Shown: piece by piece, positions 2,814-18,370 of the stretch | How the letters are laid out: every line of letters begins with the position of its first letter | Numbering within the stretch: the first letter of the stretch is position 1 | Virus record (IMG/VR): IMGVR_UViG_3300028809_000010 | Direction: 5' to 3' (one strand) | Source: an uncultured virus (IMG/VR IMGVR_UViG_3300028809_000010) | Taxonomy: Duplodnaviria; Heunggongvirae; Uroviricota; Caudoviricetes | Length of the DNA: 20,000 bases | The notes under the pieces: generated by a model | Told to the model about the DNA's origin: nothing | What the model saw: the letters and a program-made list of their open reading frames with translations, nothing else | Databases searched by the model: none | Position numbers and translations under genes: made by a program

Positions 2814-2974
2814 ACGAATGTGAATGCCCGCATCCGGACCTCTGCACTCACCCGAGTCACGACCTGCTCCGCTTCCGGAACGACAAGGTCACCCTGGAGC
2901 GAGTGCTGGATTCCATCGAGTCGGACTACGAGAAGCTCCGGCAGATCGAGAAGATCGTGGAGGCCATGCCATGA
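2810..2974 (+). CDS. Small hypothetical protein (54 aa, Cys/His-rich N-terminus)
   Basis: GTGA and ATGA overlaps at both ends; MNECECPHPDLCTHPSH...EKIVEAMP. Confidence 0.6.
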   Translation: MNECECPHPDLCTHPSHDLLRFRNDKVTLERVLDSIESDYEKLRQIEKIVEAMP

Positions 2975-4692
2975 CCCGCACCACAGTAGATTTCGCTGCC
3001 AAGCTGATATCGCCGCAAGCCATCAAGGACGCCGGGCACGAGGGCGTGATGGTCTACGTCTCGCCGAGTCGGCCCGGGTCGAACTTCGCGGCCAAGCCGA
3101 TCCAGCGGGCGTTCACTAATGAGTGCCGTTCAATCGGATTGAACATCGTCTCGATCTGGCAGTTCGGCAAGCCCGGCAACGCCCAGGCCCCGAGCGACTG
3201 GACCACCGGTTTCGAGGGCGGCCAGCGGATGGCGACCGAAGCTCAGGCCCGGCACCTCCAGGCAGGCGGACCCGATCACGCACCGATCTTCTTCGCCGTC
3301 GACGAGGACTTGAGCATCGACAACTGGAACCGGACGGCCGTCGAGTTCTTCCGGGGCGTCAACAGCGTCCTGGGCGTGCAGCGGACCGGCGTCTACGGAT
3401 CGTCGAAGGTGTGCTCCTGGGCGGTGGAGGACGGCGTCATCGGACGTAGCCGTACCCACGGGCGCTTCTGGGCGTGGCAGACGCGGGCGTGGTCCGGAGG
3501 GGAGCTCTCGCCCGAGGCCGTCCTGTTCCAGCGCGTCATCGACACACCCTCCAACCCCGGCCCCTTGATCGACGGCGCCTCCGTGGACGTCAACGACATC
3601 TGGGCCGACGACTACGGACAGTGGAGCGACAAGGCTCCGGAAGGCCCTTCCATGGCACAGAAACCCGACTTCCAAGAGATCGACCGCTTCGGCAATTCCC
3701 GCTCCAACCGCTTCAACGCACGCGTCACCAACTGGCTGATCCACACCCAGGAGGGCAACGGCACTGCGGAGTCGCTGGCGGGCTACCTCAACAACCAGGC
3801 CAACGGCGTCTCCTACCACTACACGGTCCGCGACGGCGTGGTTGTGAATGTGGTCGACACCGACTACGCCAGCTGGTCCGTCCTGGACGCCAACAGCTAC
3901 ACGATCAACCTCTGTTTCGCGGGCAGCTACGCCAGCTGGACTCGGGAGCAGTGGCTCGAGCGTGAACACGACATCCGGATCGCGGCGTGGCTGGCGGTGC
4001 AGGACGCGAAGAAGTACGGCTTCTCCGTCGAGGTCATCGCGCCCCCGTACCACCAGGCGCCGGGCATCTCCGATCACCGCTACGTCACCGAGGAGCTGGG
4101 GATCGGCACGCACACCGACGTCGGCCGCAACTTCCCGTGGGATGTGCTGGCGCGGTTCGTCGCGGAGTACACCGAGGCCGGTCCGATCCGGGTTCCGAAC
4201 GCGATCAACGACTGCGAGGCCGCCAACGCCTGGCTGGGGGAGCGGTTCACCAAGGAGGAGCTGCGCACGCCCGACGGCAAGGGCCGCTTCGTCCAGTACG
4301 ACAACGGCTTCATCTACTGGTCTCCGGACTCGGGCGCGCACCCCATCCCGAAGGATCTGTTCCCGAAGTTCGGTGATCTCGGCTGGGAGGTCGGTCCGCT
4401 GGGTTACCCGACGACCGATCCGACGAAGCTCACCGATGGTTGGGTCCAGGGCTTCCAGGGCGGCGCGCTCTACAAGAAGCTCGACCAGCCCGCCCGGTGG
4501 GTGCACGGCGAGATCCGCAACCGCTGGAACCGGACCGGCTTCGAGAACGGCCCGCTGGGTTGGCCCACCTCCGACGAGTTCCCCTTCGGCGACGGTGCCG
4601 CGCAGGACTTCGAGAAGGGCCGCATCTACTGGGCCCCGAAGCCGACTGTCGTGGTCCTGGCCGACGGCTCGGGGCTCAAGGACGCGGCATGA
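2971..4692 (+). CDS. lysA: Endolysin (lysin A): DUF1906/Rv2525c-like glycoside hydrolase + Amidase_2 + C-terminal LGFP repeats
   Basis: Start re-assigned to ATG 2971 (SD GGAGG, ATGA overlap). DUF1906 motifs PIFFAVD, GVYG, WAWQT; amidase motifs LIHTQEG, VSYHY, SWSVLDAN, HTDVGRNFPW; LGYP/LGWP repeats. Confidence 0.92.
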   Translation: MTRTTVDFAAKLISPQAIKDAGHEGVMVYVSPSRPGSNFAAKPIQRAFTNECRSIGLNIVSIWQFGKPGNAQAPSDWTTGFEGGQRMATEAQARHLQAGGPDHAPIFFAVDEDLSIDNWNRTAVEFFRGVNSVLGVQRTGVYGSSKVCSWAVEDGVIGRSRTHGRFWAWQTRAWSGGELSPEAVLFQRVIDTPSNPGPLIDGASVDVNDIWADDYGQWSDKAPEGPSMAQKPDFQEIDRFGNSRSNRFNARVTNWLIHTQEGNGTAESLAGYLNNQANGVSYHYTVRDGVVVNVVDTDYASWSVLDANSYTINLCFAGSYASWTREQWLEREHDIRIAAWLAVQDAKKYGFSVEVIAPPYHQAPGISDHRYVTEELGIGTHTDVGRNFPWDVLARFVAEYTEAGPIRVPNAINDCEAANAWLGERFTKEELRTPDGKGRFVQYDNGFIYWSPDSGAHPIPKDLFPKFGDLGWEVGPLGYPTTDPTKLTDGWVQGFQGGALYKKLDQPARWVHGEIRNRWNRTGFENGPLGWPTSDEFPFGDGAAQDFEKGRIYWAPKPTVVVLADGSGLKDAA

Positions 4693-4977: not shown

Positions 4978-5265
4978 ATGGCCTGGCCCGAGCTGATCAT
5001 GACGGCGCTCGGCTCGGGCGTGGCGGTCCAGGGCATGAACTGGTTGGCCAACCGAGGCAAGAACAAGGCCGATGCCAGTGCGACACAGGTGGATTCGATG
5101 CTCAAGCAGCTCGAACGACTCCAGAAAGAGCACGACGACCTCAAGGACGAACTGAAAGCGTTCCGCAAGGCCCTCTACCCTCACCAGAGGTGGGACTTGC
5201 TGGCCTGGAAGCGAATCCTCGAGGTCGATCCCGAGTTCCCTCCGCCCCCCGATCTCTACATCTGA
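4978..5265 (+). CDS. Membrane-anchored coiled-coil lysis accessory protein (second holin-like)
   Basis: SD GGAG; N-terminal hydrophobic segment, heptad region, proline-rich end, as in actinophage lysis cassettes. Confidence 0.65.
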   Translation: MAWPELIMTALGSGVAVQGMNWLANRGKNKADASATQVDSMLKQLERLQKEHDDLKDELKAFRKALYPHQRWDLLAWKRILEVDPEFPPPPDLYI

Positions 5266-5312
5266 AGACCCCCCTGCTCGATGGCTCCGGCTGTCGGGTG
5301 GGGGTCTTTTTT
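5265..5312 (+). terminator. Intrinsic terminator ending the late/lysis transcript
   Basis: AAGACCCCCCTGCTCGATGGC-TCCG-GCTGTCGGGTGGGGGTCTT ending in a T6 run. Confidence 0.9.
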
Positions 5313-5317
5313 GTGCC

Positions 5318-5346
5318 TTGACCGTTTAAACGCTGTCCCGTACTGT
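5318..5346 (+). promoter_or_regulatory. SigA-type promoter
   Basis: TTGACC (5318-5323), 17-nt spacer, TACTGT (5341-5346). Confidence 0.8.
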
Positions 5347-5370
5347 GGCTCCTGTCACCGTTTAAACGCT
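5321..5370. repeat. Two identical 14-bp operator-like sites ACCGTTTAAACGCT
   Basis: Exact copies at 5321-5334 and 5357-5370; core CGTTTAAACG is a perfect palindrome. Confidence 0.85.
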
Positions 5371-5389
5371 ACCGACGAAGGCAGGGCCG

Positions 5390-5902
5390 ATGACCGCGTT
5401 CGCCCCCCGGGTTTCCGCAGTACTCAGGTCCGCTGGCCTGCCCGTCATCCGCTACGGCACGCACCCCGGCAACTGGCTGGGCATCCGCGTCGGCAACGAA
5501 GGCAATGTCGGGGGCCGGGCTCAATGTTCCGTGCACTTCCACATGGACGGCGAGCTGGAGTGGTCGGACCAGGCGATGGCTGTCCTGCTGGCGAAGGGGT
5601 TTCAGGTCGAGCGACTGCCGGGGATGTCCATGCTCACCGTCCGCGCCAGCAGCCCCGGTCAGCAGGAGGACATCGCCGGGGTGGTCGCCGCCAGTGGTCT
5701 CGACATGGTCCAGCCGACCCGCAGCGAGTGGTTGGTCAATCTCCCTGGTCGACGCGGCGCCTACTCGATCCGACAGGCCGGGCAGGGTGACAGGGCCCGC
5801 TTCTCCGTCCAGGGCCATCCGGCGCGAGCCCTCGGCAAGAATCTACGGACCATGCGCTCGGCCATCGACATCATCGAAAACGACATCAAGGAGCAATCAT
5901 GA
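5390..5902 (+). CDS. Hypothetical protein (170 aa)
   Basis: First ORF after the promoter, SD GAAGG, ATGA-coupled to the next gene. Confidence 0.7.
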   Translation: MTAFAPRVSAVLRSAGLPVIRYGTHPGNWLGIRVGNEGNVGGRAQCSVHFHMDGELEWSDQAMAVLLAKGFQVERLPGMSMLTVRASSPGQQEDIAGVVAASGLDMVQPTRSEWLVNLPGRRGAYSIRQAGQGDRARFSVQGHPARALGKNLRTMRSAIDIIENDIKEQS

Positions 5903-6430: not shown

Positions 6431-6717
6431 TCAGGATGCATAGCGAGGCTCTGGACGCGGTCGTCCGCGAGAAGCTGGGCGCCACGTGGACCCGGCTCAC
6501 TCCCCGGGGAATCGTCATCTCCGAACTCCACGATCTGGCCGGGATGATCGAGGCGGTGTCGGAACTGGCCGCGCAGTGGTGCTTCGACGAATACGGCGGC
6601 GTCCAGGCCGAGGAGCTCCAGGACGCCATCACGAAGGTATCGGCGGATATTCAGCTGCTGGACAGTGCCGCCGGTGTATCGGTACGGCTGCCCGAGCTGA
6701 AGGCGGTGGCGGGATGA
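6427..6717 (+). CDS. Hypothetical protein (96 aa)
   Basis: GTGA overlap upstream and ATGA overlap downstream. Confidence 0.65.
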   Translation: MIRMHSEALDAVVREKLGATWTRLTPRGIVISELHDLAGMIEAVSELAAQWCFDEYGGVQAEELQDAITKVSADIQLLDSAAGVSVRLPELKAVAG

Positions 6718-7109
6718 GTGCCATGCTGATCCGCCCCGACGGCACCCGCGAGATCGTCCAGATCCCCAAGGGCACTCTCGGCCAGGAGCTCCTGGGCTGC
6801 CGCATGACCGAGATCGTCCCTGTCGGCGCCTCTCTCGAAATGTGGTGCGACGAGGAGGGGTTGATGACGGCGGACCCCCAGCTCAACATCGTCGCGACCA
6901 TGATGCGCTGGGAACTCTCCGGCGGCCCCGAGAACAAGCTGGACCCCAACGACTTCACCGTGGTCGGCAACGCTCTGTTTGTGGACACGGTCATCGACGG
7001 GGACGGCCACATGGTCCACCGGCAGACGATGGAAGGCTCGGTGCTGCTGGACCGGCTGAACCGCGCTGCCGACCGTGGCCTCCGCGTCAAGGAGAGGATG
7101 GGCCGATGA
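6714..7109 (+). CDS. DUF3846-like protein
   Basis: MLIRPDG...MWCDEEGL...N.VAT...VVGNALF pattern. Confidence 0.7.
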   Translation: MSAMLIRPDGTREIVQIPKGTLGQELLGCRMTEIVPVGASLEMWCDEEGLMTADPQLNIVATMMRWELSGGPENKLDPNDFTVVGNALFVDTVIDGDGHMVHRQTMEGSVLLDRLNRAADRGLRVKERMGR

Positions 7110-7303
7110 GCTATCTGGAGATGACCACCGAGGACGGCCTGCACATCCAGATCCCGGGGACAACCGCCGACGGCAGGGTTGCCATGGACGTGCACTTCGA
7201 CGACGGCTCCATCGGGGAGATCCTGCTGACGAACGAGGAGGTGCTTCGACTCCAGAAGGGACTGTCGGAGGCACGAGCAGGGGCCAAGCGTCATGGCAAC
7301 TAG
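7106..7303 (+). CDS. Hypothetical protein (65 aa)
   Basis: ATGA overlap, SD GAGGA. Confidence 0.65.
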   Translation: MSYLEMTTEDGLHIQIPGTTADGRVAMDVHFDDGSIGEILLTNEEVLRLQKGLSEARAGAKRHGN

Positions 7304-7451
7304 GACGACGCGGCTGCTGAAGCTGGAGTGCGCCTGCCCGAGAATCATCCGCGCCAGCCAGTTGGTGAGCGAGACCGGCGCCATTGTCTGCGAGGTGTGC
7401 GGGCAGAGGTTCGAACTGTCGGAGGCCGAGGAAGAGGTACGGGATGCCTGA
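7293..7451 (+). CDS. Small zinc-binding protein (52 aa)
   Basis: MATRTTRLLKLECACPRIIRAS...IVCEVCGQRF; CxC plus CxxC; overlaps both neighbours. Confidence 0.65.
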   Translation: MATRTTRLLKLECACPRIIRASQLVSETGAIVCEVCGQRFELSEAEEEVRDA

Positions 7452-7761
7452 GAAGAGCGTGCGAGCCAGCAAGACCCAGGAGGCACTGACGGTCTGGCTC
7501 GCGCTGGAAGATGCCCCCGTCTTCGATCTCCCGTATACCTCGCCGCAGCAGCAACTCGTCCCCTCCGGGGTTACCGTCTTGTACGAACGCTCCGGCGGCG
7601 AGGTCGGGTGGGGCCTGCGGAAATTCGATGTGATAGGCAACCGGGTCAACAAGAACGGGTCGCCCAGCCGGGTGGAGTCGTACTACCCCTTCACCGACAT
7701 CGACCTGGCGCCCGGCTGGCTACAGGAATTGATCGAGGAGAACCGGCCACCGGTGGGATAG
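7444..7761 (+). CDS. Hypothetical protein (105 aa)
   Basis: SD GAGGT before ATG 7444; ends before the terminator. Confidence 0.65.
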   Translation: MPEKSVRASKTQEALTVWLALEDAPVFDLPYTSPQQQLVPSGVTVLYERSGGEVGWGLRKFDVIGNRVNKNGSPSRVESYYPFTDIDLAPGWLQELIEENRPPVG

Positions 7762-9491: not shown

Positions 9492-9503
9492 CCCCCCCAC
9501 GAG

Positions 9504-9544
9504 AGAAGCCCCCACCTGGAGTCGCATCCGGGTCGGGGGCTTCT
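9504..9544. terminator. Terminator-like hairpin between convergent genes
   Basis: AGAAGCCCCCACCTGGA / TCCGGGTCGGGGGCTTCT. Confidence 0.75.
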
Positions 9545-9612
9545 GTGCTCTGCTAGGGCCTTAGGTCACCTACTGTTGAGTACATCCTAAATTGAAGGAC
9601 AAGAGTTCCGGT

Positions 9613-10035
9613 TTAGTCGCGCATCCCTTCGATCAGGCGGAGCTGCATGTCGGCGGCCTGATCGGTGAGCTCGGTGAGGGCTTCGTGGACGTCGGGAGGT
9701 AGTTCCACGGGTCGGGTGAGGCGTCGCAGCAGCTCGATCTGGGTGAGCATGGCCTTGACTTCGCTGGGGAGTCCCTGGCCGGGCTTCGGTGTACTGGGTG
9801 GCTCAAAGCCCTGTGCCAGGCGTTCCACAGTCCCTTCGGGCCACTTGAGCCCCTTGTCGAGTTTGCGCAGCGTGCCGGTCTGGGTCTTCTCGCTCAGGCG
9901 CCCGGCCTCGATGTTGATGATCGTGGGCTCACTAGCCTCCCCACGCTCCGCGACCTCTTTCTGGGTTAGCCCGAGCTCATCCCGACGAGCGCGCACATGA
10001 CGTGCGACATGGTCTGCGTACGGGTGCGAGTTCAT
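9613..10035 (-). CDS. Immunity repressor-like XRE HTH protein (140 aa)
   Basis: VRARRDELGLTQKEVAERGEASEPTIINIEAG...TLRKLDKGLKWPEG; divergent from a Cro-like gene. Confidence 0.8.
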   Translation of the reverse strand: MNSHPYADHVARHVRARRDELGLTQKEVAERGEASEPTIINIEAGRLSEKTQTGTLRKLDKGLKWPEGTVERLAQGFEPPSTPKPGQGLPSEVKAMLTQIELLRRLTRPVELPPDVHEALTELTDQAADMQLRLIEGMRD

Positions 10036-10041
10036 ACACAG

Positions 10042-10070
10042 ATCATGCCGTGTATAACTTTTTGAGGCAA
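10042..10070 (-). promoter_or_regulatory. Probable leaderless promoter of the repressor
   Basis: Minus strand TTGCCT-N17-CATGAT-N6-ATG; no SD. Confidence 0.6.
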
Positions 10071-10116
10071 GAGGCGATGCCCATGTCCGCCGGATGTCCC
10101 CTCTGACCTGGGAGTT

Positions 10117-10144
10117 TGCGACTTCTTAGCTGCGACTAAAAAGT
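10117..10144. repeat. Tandem 14-bp imperfect repeat, candidate operators
   Basis: TGCGACTTCTTAGC (10117-10130) and TGCGACTAAAAAGT (10131-10144) in the AT-rich switch region. Confidence 0.5.
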
Positions 10145-10171
10145 TCCTAAAAAATACATGCCCGCTAGGTC

Positions 10172-10201
10172 TTGGCAACTAAAGACTGCTTGTGATGTAG
10201 T
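10172..10201 (+). promoter_or_regulatory. Possible leaderless rightward early promoter
   Basis: TTGGCA-N18-TGTAGT-N6-ATG(10208); the -10 is imperfect. Confidence 0.4.
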
Positions 10202-10207
10202 TCATAT

Positions 10208-10444
10208 ATGCAACGACCGATTCGCACCAATGGCACACAGATTCCTGTACCGATTGAGTGGGTACGGAAGCACATGAATCTCACCCAGAAGGAGCTATAC
10301 GACCTGCTCCAACAGATGGGGGTCGAGTGTTCGCTATCGACGTTGTCCCACGTAGAGACCGGCAAGAGAGACTTCTCCGCTGAGATGGCCCGCAACGTCG
10401 GCACCGCGATCTCCAGGATCATCGCCCAGCGGGAGCAGTCGTGA
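10208..10444 (+). CDS. Cro-like XRE HTH protein (78 aa)
   Basis: VRKHMNLTQKEL...SLSTLSHVETGKR; first gene of the rightward operon. Confidence 0.8.
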   Translation: MQRPIRTNGTQIPVPIEWVRKHMNLTQKELYDLLQQMGVECSLSTLSHVETGKRDFSAEMARNVGTAISRIIAQREQS

Positions 10445-10587
10445 TCACCCCCGAAGTAGTAGCCGACAAGGCTCGCAAGCTGGGTCCGATGCCAGCCCAT
10501 ATCGAGCACCTTCTGCTCTCTCGCTTCTCAGAAGCTATCTGCCAGCAATTCGAAGCTGGAGAATCCGTCAATACCCCTGCCGCATAA
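10441..10587 (+). CDS. Hypothetical protein (48 aa)
   Basis: GTGA overlap, SD GGGAG. Confidence 0.55.
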   Translation: MITPEVVADKARKLGPMPAHIEHLLLSRFSEAICQQFEAGESVNTPAA

Positions 10588-10637
10588 GCGGTTTCGCCTC
10601 CACGGCTGGTCCGTCGAGCCACCCTGTACCCGTCTTT

Positions 10638-10693
10638 GCCTCCAGCGGCTATGCAGCGGTGATCGCGCCTGGGTTCGAGTCCCGGGGGAGGCC
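10638..10693 (+). ncRNA. Minimal tRNA-like element (acceptor stem + T arm, no normal D or anticodon arm)
   Basis: GCCTCC/GGAGGC stacked on CCTGGG-TTCGAGT-CCCGGG; only 24 nt between them; ends C-CTA rather than CCA. Confidence 0.6.
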
Positions 10694-10699
10694 CTAAAT

Positions 10700-10932
10700 C
10701 CAACGGCTACGGCTGGTTGGCGTGCGCAAGCACGGGTTCGGCAGCACCTTGGCAGCTGCACGGTTCGACCCACACCTACAAACGCGAGCTCCGGTTCGTG
10801 GAAGTGGGTCACCTTAACGTGCATGTATGCGAATACGTGCATGAGATGTGGGCGTATACGGGAGGCCCGACAGTCCCGGTAAGACCAACGGCCACCTACA
10901 CCTTCGTGACGCGAAGAGGTAAGGCCCACATC
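10700..10932 (+). ncRNA. Multi-hairpin structured RNA of unknown class
   Basis: Hairpins with C(UACG)G 10700-10720, GCAA 10721-10734, C(UCCG)G 10783-10800, GCGA 10818-10843; enclosing stems 10767-10773/10804-10810 and 10845-10853/10924-10932. Confidence 0.7.
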
Positions 10933-10936
10933 CCCT

Positions 10937-11019
10937 GGACCGGTAGCTCAACGGAAGAGCACTGCCGCGCGGATCAACAGGTACAGAAGACGCAGGTTCG
11001 AATCCTGCCCGGTCCCCCA
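10937..11019 (+). tRNA. tRNA-like gene with an aberrant, expanded anticodon arm (isotype undetermined)
   Basis: GGACCGG/CCGGTCC acceptor, TA, GCTC-AACGGAA-GAGC D arm, GCAGG-TTCGAAT-CCTGC T arm, C discriminator, encoded CCA; anticodon arm 8 nt too long with a 13-nt loop. Confidence 0.8.
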
Positions 11020-11055
11020 ATCCGATTCCACCCCAACATCTTTCAAGGAGGCATC

Positions 11056-11178
11056 ATGCCCAGACTCACCAGCCAACAGGTCGCCGACGTTCTGATGCGG
11101 CACAGCCGGTACTTCTCCCACTCCGGCTACGGCCAGGACCCCAATGTCAGCGCCCAGCTCGTCGAGGTTCTGCCGTGA
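11056..11178 (+). CDS. Small hypothetical protein (40 aa)
   Basis: SD AAGGAGG; GTGA-coupled to the next gene. Confidence 0.6.
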   Translation: MPRLTSQQVADVLMRHSRYFSHSGYGQDPNVSAQLVEVLP

Positions 11179-11474
11179 CGGCGTCGGTGGAGGACTTCGA
11201 GATGACCCGCCACGCCCTCGAGCGAGTTCAGGACATGCTGGTCACCCCGGAGGAGATCCGGCAGGCGATGCTGAACCCCATCAAGATCAAGCCTCACTAC
11301 AGCCAGAAGCACGGCCTCGGTGAGTACTACTTCAGCGGGCGGATAGCACTGGTAGTCGTCACCGACGCCGAGACCCGTAAGCGCCGCGTCATCACCGTCG
11401 TCTGGCGGCGAGACCGGATGTGGGCCAAGGACTTCCGGCAGTTCGGACCGTACGGCGACAGGGCCCCCCGATGA
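11175..11474 (+). CDS. DUF4258-like protein (putative BECR/RelE-like RNase fold)
   Basis: MTRHALERV...TPEEIRQAMLNP...IALVV...VITV pattern. Confidence 0.65.
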   Translation: MTASVEDFEMTRHALERVQDMLVTPEEIRQAMLNPIKIKPHYSQKHGLGEYYFSGRIALVVVTDAETRKRRVITVVWRRDRMWAKDFRQFGPYGDRAPR

Positions 11475-11776
11475 ACGAGGTCCGAGAGCTGCTCGAAAGC
11501 CTGCTGACGCATGAAGGCTGGATGACCCACGGTAAATGCCGGGGAGCCAATCCGGACCGTTACCTCTCCGACAAGCTCCCGCCGTTCCCCCCGGCCGCTC
11601 GCGAAGCCCGGCTGGAGGAGCTGTGCGGCGGCTGTCCGGTGAGGCGGCAATGCGCCGGATACGCCCTCCGCGTCGAACTGACCCAGGTCATCGTCTGCGG
11701 AATCCCCCTCACCGCACACCCCGACAAGGCCCAAAAGGATGCACTCAGGGCCATCAAGGACGGAAAGAAGCCTTGA
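11471..11776 (+). CDS. whiB: WhiB-family transcription factor
   Basis: W....C.G..P, CGGCPVRRQC..YAL; turn motif diverged to VIVCG. Confidence 0.8.
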   Translation: MNEVRELLESLLTHEGWMTHGKCRGANPDRYLSDKLPPFPPAAREARLEELCGGCPVRRQCAGYALRVELTQVIVCGIPLTAHPDKAQKDALRAIKDGKKP

Positions 11777-14477: not shown

Positions 14478-14691
14478 ACGCAACGACCGCAAAGGAACCC
14501 GCCAGACCGAGGCACGGGAGCGGCAGCTGGCCAGGGATCTCCGTACCACCGAGGAGCAGCTGGACGAGCTCAATGTCCGCTCCGGCCTGGACCGCGATGC
14601 CTGCCGCGAACGTGCCCGCCTCTACCTGCGTTCGGAGCTGGAGGAGCTGCACTTCGAAGCATGGGAGGGAGCCCTCGATGTCCATTCCTGA
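14467..14691 (+). CDS. Hypothetical protein (74 aa, charged coiled coil)
   Basis: SD AAGGAGGT. Confidence 0.7.
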   Translation: MARKRNDRKGTRQTEARERQLARDLRTTEEQLDELNVRSGLDRDACRERARLYLRSELEELHFEAWEGALDVHS

Positions 14692-15124
14692 CATGTCCTG
14701 GATGGATCGGGCCAGCTGCATCGGCCGGGCAGGGGAATTCGACGCAGAACGGCTCAACGATCTCGGCATCCGCAGCCGCCGGTATCAGGCTCAGCTCCTC
14801 TGCAATGGCTGCCCGGTCATGCGGCAATGCAACCTCCAGGCCCAAGAGCAAGGCGCGCGAGGAGTGGTCCGGGGCGGTCGCACATACACCGACGACCGGG
14901 TCAGGCCCAAGGATGATCGCTGGACGTATCCGGTGCCGACGGCCAAGGTGCTCGACGACCGCCGGACCGAGCAGTACGAAGCCCGCTACACCCGGATCTC
15001 CTCGGCGAAGTGGGAAGTCGACGGCGAGGAGATCCGGGCGGAGGAAGCGTTGGCAGCTGCCAGTCGGCGTCGCCCGTACAGCAGCCAAGCCGCTATCTAC
15101 CGATACGCATTGGAGCAGCGATGA
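14678..15124 (+). CDS. whiB: Second WhiB-family protein with C-terminal extension (148 aa)
   Basis: SD GGAGG; WMDRASC, CNGCPVMRQC, GVVRGG. Confidence 0.75.
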   Translation: MSIPDMSWMDRASCIGRAGEFDAERLNDLGIRSRRYQAQLLCNGCPVMRQCNLQAQEQGARGVVRGGRTYTDDRVRPKDDRWTYPVPTAKVLDDRRTEQYEARYTRISSAKWEVDGEEIRAEEALAAASRRRPYSSQAAIYRYALEQR

Positions 15125-18042: not shown

Positions 18043-18370
18043 GTGGAAGAAGCTCAACCGCCACGGCACCAAAGAGAAGTCCGACTGGCTGACCCAGCTG
18101 TGGTTCCACGGGACGGAAAAGCAGTTCTCGAAGTGGATCGACGACATCTGTCTCCTCAAGAGCAGCAAGGGCTTCGAGCTCGGGACGCATCAGCAGATCC
18201 GGGAAGGCGTGGGGGATTACCTCGACCCGGCCGAACGGGCGCTGAAAGAGATCGAGGCACTGATCCAGCGAGCCAACCAGGACAGCGAAGTCCACAAGGC
18301 GTATATCTCCGGCCTCGGCACGGCCCGAACGATGCTGCGCAAAGAAATCAACAGCAGACACGGATTCTAG
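18035..18370 (+). CDS. Hypothetical protein (111 aa)
   Basis: SD AAAGGG, overlaps the exonuclease end. Confidence 0.65.
   Translation: MSKWKKLNRHGTKEKSDWLTQLWFHGTEKQFSKWIDDICLLKSSKGFELGTHQQIREGVGDYLDPAERALKEIEALIQRANQDSEVHKAYISGLGTARTMLRKEINSRHGF

Follow-up and report, generated by a model that had tools for sequence, protein, structure and literature searches.

We examined a 20,000-nucleotide (nt) stretch of phage DNA (IMG/VR record IMGVR_UViG_3300028809_000010; hereafter, the window) that carries an unusual cassette at the head of an early operon. The source phage is an uncultured high-GC siphovirus of Actinomycetota, and its early genes are arranged in the order cro-like gene, 48-codon open reading frame (ORF), gap, 40-codon ORF, DUF4258 gene, and WhiB gene. 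The gap is 468 nt long (10588-11055), extending from the stop codon of the 48-codon ORF (10587) to the ATG of the 40-codon ORF (11056). It contains a 56-nt tRNA-derived minihelix (10638-10693), a 243-nt hairpin-rich spacer (10694-10936), and an 83-nt tRNA-like gene (10937-11019), which share one orientation (plus strand) with the flanking genes. A preliminary inspection by eye of the letters and their ORFs (the sequence-only reading) had proposed that two tRNA mimics punctuate a structured RNA at this site. The coordinates and components of that proposal, i.e., the minihelix, the spacer hairpins, the enclosing stems, and the tRNA-like gene, were all found in place.

The gap is noncoding. Its reading frames showed a flat GC content by codon position (0.58/0.58/0.69 and 0.63/0.59/0.61), compared with approximately 0.64/0.42/0.85 in the neighboring genes, and three ORFs over the gap had no Pfam match at an E value of ≤1. 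The sequence-only reading had set its structured RNA against a conserved ORF starting at TTG 10717. This frame runs on through the tRNA-like gene, and no homolog of it was present among 5.8 billion protein clusters.

The spacer was predicted to fold into hairpins H1 to H6 and two enclosing stems on the plus strand. H1 (10700-10720) has a UACG loop, one bulged G, and a tandem ACGGCT ACGGCT (pair probability, 0.88 to 0.96), and H2 (10721-10734) has 5 base pairs (bp) and a GCAA loop (0.85 to 0.87). H3 (10741-10759; 5 bp with a 9-nt loop) had a probability of 0.95 in the spacer alone and 0.03 in the context of 10560-11060. H4 (10783-10800; 7 bp, two of them G-U, with a UCCG loop; 0.74 to 0.75) lies inside the enclosing stem GACCCAC/GUGGGUC (10767-10773/10804-10810; 0.94 to 0.96). 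H5 (10818-10843) has 11 bp, including two G-U pairs, and a GCGA loop (0.99). The second enclosing stem, AUGUGGGC/GCCCACAU (10846-10853/10924-10931; 0.98 to 1.0), surrounds a multibranch domain with H6 (10902-10916; 0.97). Pair probabilities ranged from 0.74 to 1.0 for every listed spacer helix except H3. Six of the 57 listed base pairs are G-U pairs, at which the opposite strand would have A-C mismatches.

Hairpins capped by GNRA or UNCG loops with a stem of at least 4 bp were found five times on the plus strand of the spacer and never on the minus strand. Two of the five (UCCG at 10790 and GGAA at 10800) are mutually exclusive. Dinucleotide shuffles of the spacer contained a mean of 0.25 such hairpins, with none of 2,000 shuffles reaching five, and just 0.4% of 488 windows of 243 nt across the 20 kb reached this number. 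On the plus strand, the minimum free energy of the spacer was -101.3 kcal/mol, corresponding to a z score of -2.85 (1 of 200 shuffles as good); the z score on the minus strand was -1.42 (20 of 200). The run of UNCG and GNRA hairpins with two enclosing stems that had been read by eye is thus borne out, with five tetraloop hairpins against 0.25 expected and on the plus strand only. We conclude that a structured RNA on the plus strand is the right description of the spacer.

The minihelix comprises a 6-bp acceptor (GCCUCC/GGAGGC), two 3-bp arms, a 6-bp T stem, and the canonical T loop GGUUCGAGUCC. Acceptor and T arm together provide 12 bp, the discriminator is C, and there is no CCA. When the element was folded alone (-26.1 kcal/mol), the acceptor, both 3-bp arms, and the T arm formed. 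Its best Rfam match was mascRNA-menRNA (RF01684; 24.4 bits; E value of 0.018 in an 801-base search), below the gathering threshold of 42.5 bits. It could be aligned to model R1 of the tRNA-like family described below by its acceptor and T arm only (10.3 bits; E value of 0.24). The minihelix and the tRNA-like gene both have U at position -1 and G at position +1, and CCA is encoded in the latter only. The earlier claim that both flanks retain the acceptor/T-arm surface held. Upstream of the minihelix, a partial copy of its 5' end was detected at 10593-10621 (TTCGCCTCCA-CGGCTGG plus a D-arm-like GGCU/AGCC hairpin; direct repeats D7 and D9), with the duplicate spanning 10593-10610. At the setting -ps80 -i only, ARAGORN combined this copy and the T arm into a "tRNA-Gly with 9-nt intron" (10596-10694). 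This call was rejected because the same setting gave 15 extra calls in a 3-kb control locus.

The tRNA-like gene was called tRNA-Pro(cgg) by ARAGORN, with two C/A mismatches in the anticodon stem, and it matched the Rfam tRNA model (RF00005) with 51.7 bits (gathering threshold, 29 bits). It has a 7-bp acceptor, the D stem GCUC/GAGC, the T stem GCAGG/CCUGC, and an encoded CCA (11017-11019). In place of an anticodon arm, it carries CUG, the palindrome CCGCGCGG, the tail AUCAACAGGUA, and CAG. This region is 19 nt long compared with 11 nt in the Rfam model, which makes it 8 to 9 nt too long. The gene does not qualify as a decoding tRNA (5-bp stem, 7-nt loop, U33, and readable anticodon), and only the 3-bp CUG/CAG is kept across its family.

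Members of this family were defined by tRNA acceptor, D, and T arms and by CUG followed, after 0 to 3 nt, by a perfect 8- to 12-nt palindrome and an A/C-rich tail ending in CAG. The palindrome is GC-rich, and the tail approximates RYAACARGURCAG. The window gene fits this definition and scored 86.3 bits against model R1. A gene of Eggerthella phage LE2-3, annotated as "tRNA-Cys" in GenBank, has the D arm, "GAGCACUG", an 8-nt palindrome, and "AACAGGUACAG" in common with the window gene and shows compensatory differences in the acceptor and T stems. Pattern scans recovered 23 IMG/VR loci and 95 metagenome loci, representing 87 unique sequences. A tRNA-like body (at least 6 of 7 acceptor pairs and at least 4 of 5 T-stem pairs) was present in 53 of them. 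A perfect 8- to 12-nt palindrome lay 0 to 3 nt after CUG in 28 of the 53 (chance expectation, 1.7% per sequence), and the remaining 25 were mostly tRNAs with ordinary small introns or other long-armed tRNA-like sequences. A further member with a 10-nt palindrome was identified in an Actinomycetales metagenome-assembled genome (MAG). The members listed are the window gene, L010:595-678, L042:670-755, and 28 unique loci among L047-L175. They originate from soil, gut, and bioreactor metagenomes and from one cultured Eggerthella phage.

Covariation was evaluated in an alignment (A3) of 30 sequences, i.e., the window gene, the MAG copy, and the 28 unique loci, from which duplicates, L144, and a case with a 6-nt palindrome (L063/L124) were excluded. 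Paired cells amounted to 97.2%, compared with 83.7% in shuffles (0 of 500 as high) and 34 to 49% in slid controls, and 8 base pairs show changes of both partners, with strong covariation in the acceptor and T stems. Because the search pattern imposed the D stem and CUG, these two are uninformative in this respect. The palindromes observed were GCGCGCGC, GGCGCGCC, CCGCGCGG, GCGGCCGC, GUGCGCAC, GGACGUCC, GAGGCCUC, GGCGGCCGCC, GUGUGCGCACAC, and UGGUGGCCACCA. Those of the series CCGCGCGG, GGCGCGCC, GCGGCCGC, GUGCGCAC, GGACGUCC, and up to 12 nt covary at each position, the central four bases included. A hairpin loop does not need these central four bases to be perfect, so their perfection points to an intermolecular duplex or to a recognition site of symmetric form in DNA or RNA. 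The family consists of real, selected RNAs that have a tRNA body and no usable anticodon arm, and the covariation of this body speaks against dead genes. ARAGORN labeled its members Pro, Val, Ala, or "???". Family genes are probably misannotated as tRNAs with odd or undetermined anticodons, and the RNAs may not decode at all. Full-text literature searches found no description of palindrome-bearing tRNA-like genes. Two viral candidate RNAs that overlap ARAGORN "tRNA-Cys" calls, DNAVirus_8881 and DNAVirus_215, may be family members (PMC10690425). The portion of a review consulted here (PMC7609411) mentions neither phages nor palindromes.

Other unusual elements were encountered during these scans. 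A second odd tRNA-like type (L055, L056, L062, L128, L150, and L152), with the acceptor AAUCAGG, has an anticodon arm in which a 7-bp CUGCAAG/CUUGCAG stem is extended by a tetraloop-capped GUUC/GAAC helix. An anticodon loop is absent from this type, to which ARAGORN assigned a 2-nt "anticodon." In a human-gut metagenome contig (L087), a tRNA-like gene has a single long, AU-rich palindromic hairpin as its anticodon arm (CUGGU-U-AAUAUAUAUAUAUU-ACCAG) and resembles an AT-rich version of the family with GC-rich palindromes. Seven Microbacterium genomes (L021, L023, L024, L025, L030, L035, and L043) share an intergenic inverted repeat of the form ACCTGTCATAACAGGTACAGTRARCYTGTCATTACAGGT, which has the look of a conserved operator and no relation to the tRNA-like family.

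The gap is rich in short direct repeats that are absent from the rest of the window (D1-D10). CCARCGGCYA occurs exactly three times and GGGAGGCCC exactly twice in the window, with every copy inside the gap. GGTTCG occurs five times within 329 nt on the plus strand, compared with 14 occurrences over both strands of the window (40 kb of strand). Three of these motifs are located in the spacer, 27 and 31 nt apart, outside T-arm hairpins. Tandem Repeats Finder reported no array, and no decayed tRNA or tRNA-like copy was detected in 10694-10936 with model R1 (E value of ≤10, filters off) or the Rfam tRNA model (E value of ≤10). The gap looks as if it was assembled by local duplication of tRNA-like sequence, although stable hairpins now predominate in it. 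Positions 10624-10630 are complementary over 7 nt to the conserved tail of the tRNA-like gene; this match was attributed to chance, since 8 of 31 family loci contain comparable 7-mers, at inconsistent positions.

Relatives of the spacer and minihelix were sought in several ways. A distant-mode blastn search of 10400-11200 against 50,697 phage records yielded the tRNA-like gene of Eggerthella phage LE2-3 as its sole match, and an exact scan of IMG/VR for a 26-nt hairpin yielded none. Among 301 Actinomycetes genomes, 13 weak, short matches to the gap were obtained, of which the best, and the only one inspected, lies inside an open frame (E value of 5e-5; 79% over 57 nt). A blastn search of the gap against 168 fetched loci, collected for other purposes, gave nothing beyond matches already known. 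Neighboring genes were equally uninformative as anchors: the DUF4258 neighbor matched only itself among the 5.8 billion clusters, protein-seeded IMG/VR searches returned one 30-residue match and none for the cro-like gene or the exonuclease, and in Gordonia phages carrying a related repressor, cro is not followed by a gap. The homolog collection thus brought up no second spacer in cultured phages, IMG/VR, the 301 Actinomycetes genomes, or the 168 loci. The comparison of 10400-11200 with Rfam, which had been suggested as a way to place the RNA, was informative for the flanks, which matched mascRNA-menRNA (below gathering) and tRNA, and gave no plus-strand family for the spacer at an E value of ≤10. 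At the same cutoff, no match was found in this segment to transfer-messenger RNA (tmRNA), to YrlA or other bacterial Y RNAs, or to GOLLD or ROOL; models of YrlA, GOLLD, and ROOL are presumably part of Rfam 15. ARAGORN in its tmRNA mode (-m, also with -ps80) likewise called nothing in 10401-11200. The 45.3-kb IMG/VR record that is identical (100%) to the window over 10400-11200 (G001) has no TROVE gene that could accompany a Y RNA, and the whole gap, at 468 nt, is the space available for a GOLLD or ROOL. The spacer is a statistically solid yet orphan structured RNA.

The cassette is not conserved. In the loci examined, relatives of the tRNA-like gene are solitary, open frames end 30 to 250 nt upstream of them, and neither minihelix nor spacer is present. 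A GTTCRA motif occurs within 500 nt upstream in only 2 of 20 family loci, both times inside long open frames. No fetched family locus aligned to the window gap by blastn, and Rfam detected no minihelix in the four family loci tested. In 5 of 7 annotated loci, terminase genes lie 0.2 to 2.3 kb downstream of the tRNA-like gene, as opposed to its placement after cro here. Of the same seven, one other locus carries an HNH nuclease and one a transposase. Because the position of the tRNA-like gene is not conserved, a trans-acting RNA is favored over a DNA site. The idea of a tRNA-punctuation cassette therefore stands in part: the noncoding nature, the strand-specific hairpin excess, and the two acceptor/T-arm flanks speak for it, but those examined among the 28 unique palindrome-bearing relatives have neither minihelix nor spacer. 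Nothing was found in favor of the further suggestion that the RNA is a partner of an insert-removal system. G001 contains no RtcB or TROVE gene, and the tRNA-like family has no conserved neighbor gene, with no ORF family occurring in more than 6 of the 24 loci compared.

Elsewhere in the window, Pfam and PHROGs matches identified minor tail proteins (68-2476), lysin A with LGFP repeats (2824-4692), a repressor-like helix-turn-helix (HTH) gene on the minus strand (9613-10035), and the divergent cro-like HTH gene (10208-10444). Further downstream, the early genes encode a DUF4258 protein, two WhiB-like regulators (11420-11776 and 14573-15124), and an exonuclease. The closest cultured relatives of the window repressor are annotated as immunity repressors in Gordonia phages. 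In a megablast search of cultured phages, the whole window had a single match, to lysin A (approximately 72%). ORFs at 6629-7652 (minus strand) and 5390-5902, between the lysis cassette and the immunity region, had no Pfam, PHROGs, or NCBIfam match; this stretch is the usual integrase site in actinophages. The first protein gene 3' of the gap, the 40-codon ORF (11045-11178, plus strand), has its ATG at 11056, a strong ribosome-binding site (RBS; AAGGAGG, 11045-11051), and GC contents by codon position of 0.66/0.41/0.85. Within 11056-11474, it shares a 4-nt ATGA-type junction (11175-11178) with the gene of a 99-amino-acid protein that scored 24.9 bits against DUF4258, just below the Pfam cutoff of 25. 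Neither product had relatives among the 5.8 billion clusters, the DUF4258-like one matching itself only, and the layout looks like a small two-gene module, e.g., a toxin-antitoxin pair. On the plus strand of 9500-11600, no sigma-70-like promoter or U-tract terminator was found.

The sequence was present as contigs in seven public soil metagenome runs, all of them DNA and none RNA. The four soil runs examined contained identical pieces of the same phage, without variants in the gap. G001 carries two serine-recombinase genes at its far end, approximately 34 kb from the gap, and no tyrosine integrase; TROVE domains were also absent from the 38 ORFs of the window. Six ordinary tRNAs are encoded in G001, of which Arg(acg), Ser(cga), Ser(gct), Tyr(gta), and His(gtg) are clustered at 5094-5651 and Trp(cca) stands alone at 18163-18235. 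Since these ordinary tRNAs lie elsewhere, the tRNA-like gene after cro is separate from the decoding tRNA set of the phage.

We tentatively read the spacer as a lineage-specific structured piece of the early transcript that is cut out incidentally by RNase P and RNase Z, a reading to which we would give somewhat less than an even chance. It is taken as a lineage-specific spacer or leader because it is missing from the examined relatives of the tRNA-like gene. Recognition by RNase P and RNase Z is directed mainly at the acceptor/T-arm surface. The gap would be transcribed rightward, presumably from the cro promoter, and cuts by host RNase P would fall at 10637/10638 and 10936/10937, on the 5' side of the two tRNA-like elements. 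Another cut, by RNase Z or 3' trimming, would follow the minihelix discriminator (at approximately 10693/10694). The 243-nt piece would be freed as a by-product of the maturation of the tRNA-like RNA, and would probably be long-lived owing to its closed hairpins. Any function that it has is probably local, i.e., insulating or stabilizing the processed early transcript, and we would not place it in a conserved noncoding RNA (ncRNA) class.

Several observations weigh against this reading. The minihelix scores under the Rfam gathering threshold (24.4 versus 42.5 bits), and its pair probability is just 0.16 to 0.18 in the 10560-11060 context. The fold energy of the spacer ranks third of 82 equal-sized windows, behind two coding windows, and is therefore not exceptional by itself. 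No second spacer sequence was found in which covariation might be seen, and the public runs that contain the sequence are DNA runs only. In addition, the four or five extra-stable GNRA/UNCG loops are left unexplained by the by-product view. Loops of this kind suggest that the structure has been under selection and that the spacer may have a real function. One such function, which we consider unlikely, is that of a discrete trans-acting ncRNA of a new class, released by both tRNA mimics and perhaps cooperating with the palindrome-bearing tRNA-like RNA. The strand-specific excess of tetraloop hairpins, the two closed domains, the canonical-looking RNase P contexts at both flanks, and three more GGUUCG T-loop-like motifs within 64 nt would all suit such an RNA. 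However, no homolog was found anywhere searched, the cassette is missing from the examined relatives of the tRNA-like gene, and complementarity to the tRNA-like tail does not exceed chance (7-mers in 8 of 31 family loci). A more elaborate version is very unlikely in our view: the early transcript would yield two cooperating ncRNAs via host tRNA processing, a tetraloop-rich 243-nt RNA of a new kind and a palindrome-bearing tRNA-like RNA that might dimerize loop to loop, in the manner of a retroviral dimerization loop, and, as a dimer, sequester host factors binding or cleaving tRNA anticodon arms in the way of a decoy or sponge.

Alternatively, the hairpins may act in cis, pausing, terminating, or modifying RNA polymerase and thereby gating the downstream early genes, as in a control region of the lambda nutR-tR1 or HK022 putR kind. 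The cassette lies 50 to 350 nt past the cro-like gene and the 48-codon ORF and ahead of all other early genes, has multiple strong hairpins on the transcribed strand, and includes a segment (10844-10855) that can alternatively pair with 11030-11041, beside the RBS (repeat I4). We nevertheless hold such a role to be doubtful, since the plus strand has no U-tract terminator, Pfam and PHROGs matches reveal no N/Q-type antiterminator, no comparable gap exists in Gordonia phages whose repressor is related, and the downstream tRNA-like gene requires read-through. The internal direct repeats, which include minihelix pieces and the partial 5'-end duplicate at 10593-10610, could also mark the gap as nonfunctional debris of duplicated and decayed tRNA or tRNA-like genes, in a phage that has six ordinary tRNAs elsewhere and in which the gap is an orphan. 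This is rather improbable: neither model R1 nor the Rfam tRNA model recovered a decayed copy in 10694-10936 (E value of ≤10), the extra GGTTCG motifs (27 and 31 nt apart) are too close for tRNA units and lie outside T-arm hairpins, and five stable tetraloop hairpins confined to one strand would not be expected of debris. Least credible is a DNA-level element (attP, replication origin, or protein-binding repeats) or a protein-coding ORF. Repeated 9- to 10-nt motifs are restricted to the gap, open frames cover it on both strands, and attP sites of tyrosine integrases contain tRNA 3'-end look-alikes. Against a DNA element, the G-U pairs and the strand asymmetry of the hairpins point to RNA, the recombinases of G001 are serine recombinases approximately 34 kb away with no tyrosine integrase, and the T-arm/acceptor segment has no exact match in the 301 Actinomycetes genomes (best, 90% over 29 nt in one genome). 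The coding alternative is largely refuted by the lack of a coding signal.

Should a stable spacer RNA indeed be released, it would represent an actinophage case of a structured RNA made by tRNA-type punctuation at the head of an early operon, the place from which regulatory RNAs govern the choice between lysis and lysogeny in better-studied phages. On firmer ground is the tRNA-like gene, which belongs to a recurrent phage family with a covarying tRNA body and a perfect palindrome at the place of the anticodon. A family of this kind, whose members may be nondecoding, bears on counts of phage "tRNA" genes, on work on phage tRNAs, and on anticodon-directed host defenses.

Known systems offer partial parallels. 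Like the minihelix, mascRNA and the MEN-beta RNA (MALAT1 and NEAT1; RF01684) are small acceptor-plus-T-arm elements without a proper anticodon arm inside a longer transcript, which RNase P and RNase Z could cut. The resemblance reflects convergent architecture and not homology, because the RF01684 family is vertebrate and nuclear. In the tRNA cluster of phage T4, species 1 and 2 are reportedly stable structured RNAs of unknown function that are cotranscribed with tRNAs and released by tRNA processing. The present spacer has no sequence or Rfam relation to them, belongs to a phage of another host phylum, and is flanked by a minihelix and a nondecoding tRNA-like RNA. Spacers of bacterial tRNA precursors (3'ETS-leuZ and internal spacers) can give rise to functional, or at any rate stable, RNAs, namely sponge RNAs of approximately 50 nt that act by base pairing. 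Both kinds derive from stretches between tRNA-type processing sites, whereas the present spacer is 243 nt long and almost fully folded. In mitochondria, tRNA shapes serve genome-wide as cut marks that separate mRNAs and rRNAs; here, the punctuation concerns one locus, and relatives of the tRNA-like gene do not have the same layout. Lambda nutR-tR1 and HK022 put are structured RNAs directly after cro, at the head of the delayed-early genes, a similar position to that of the cassette, which is not known to resemble them in sequence and differs in having no U-tract terminator and no recognized antiterminator protein. GOLLD and ROOL are ornate RNAs of 500 to 800 nt, several times larger than the spacer, that neighbor tRNAs in phages, and YrlA combines a Ro-binding stem with a tRNA-like domain and is encoded near a Ro60 (TROVE) gene. 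The cassette shares with these RNAs, including YrlA as a bacterial Y RNA described as mimicking tRNA (PMC4201824), the character of a structured ncRNA of phages or bacteria that mimics or adjoins tRNAs.

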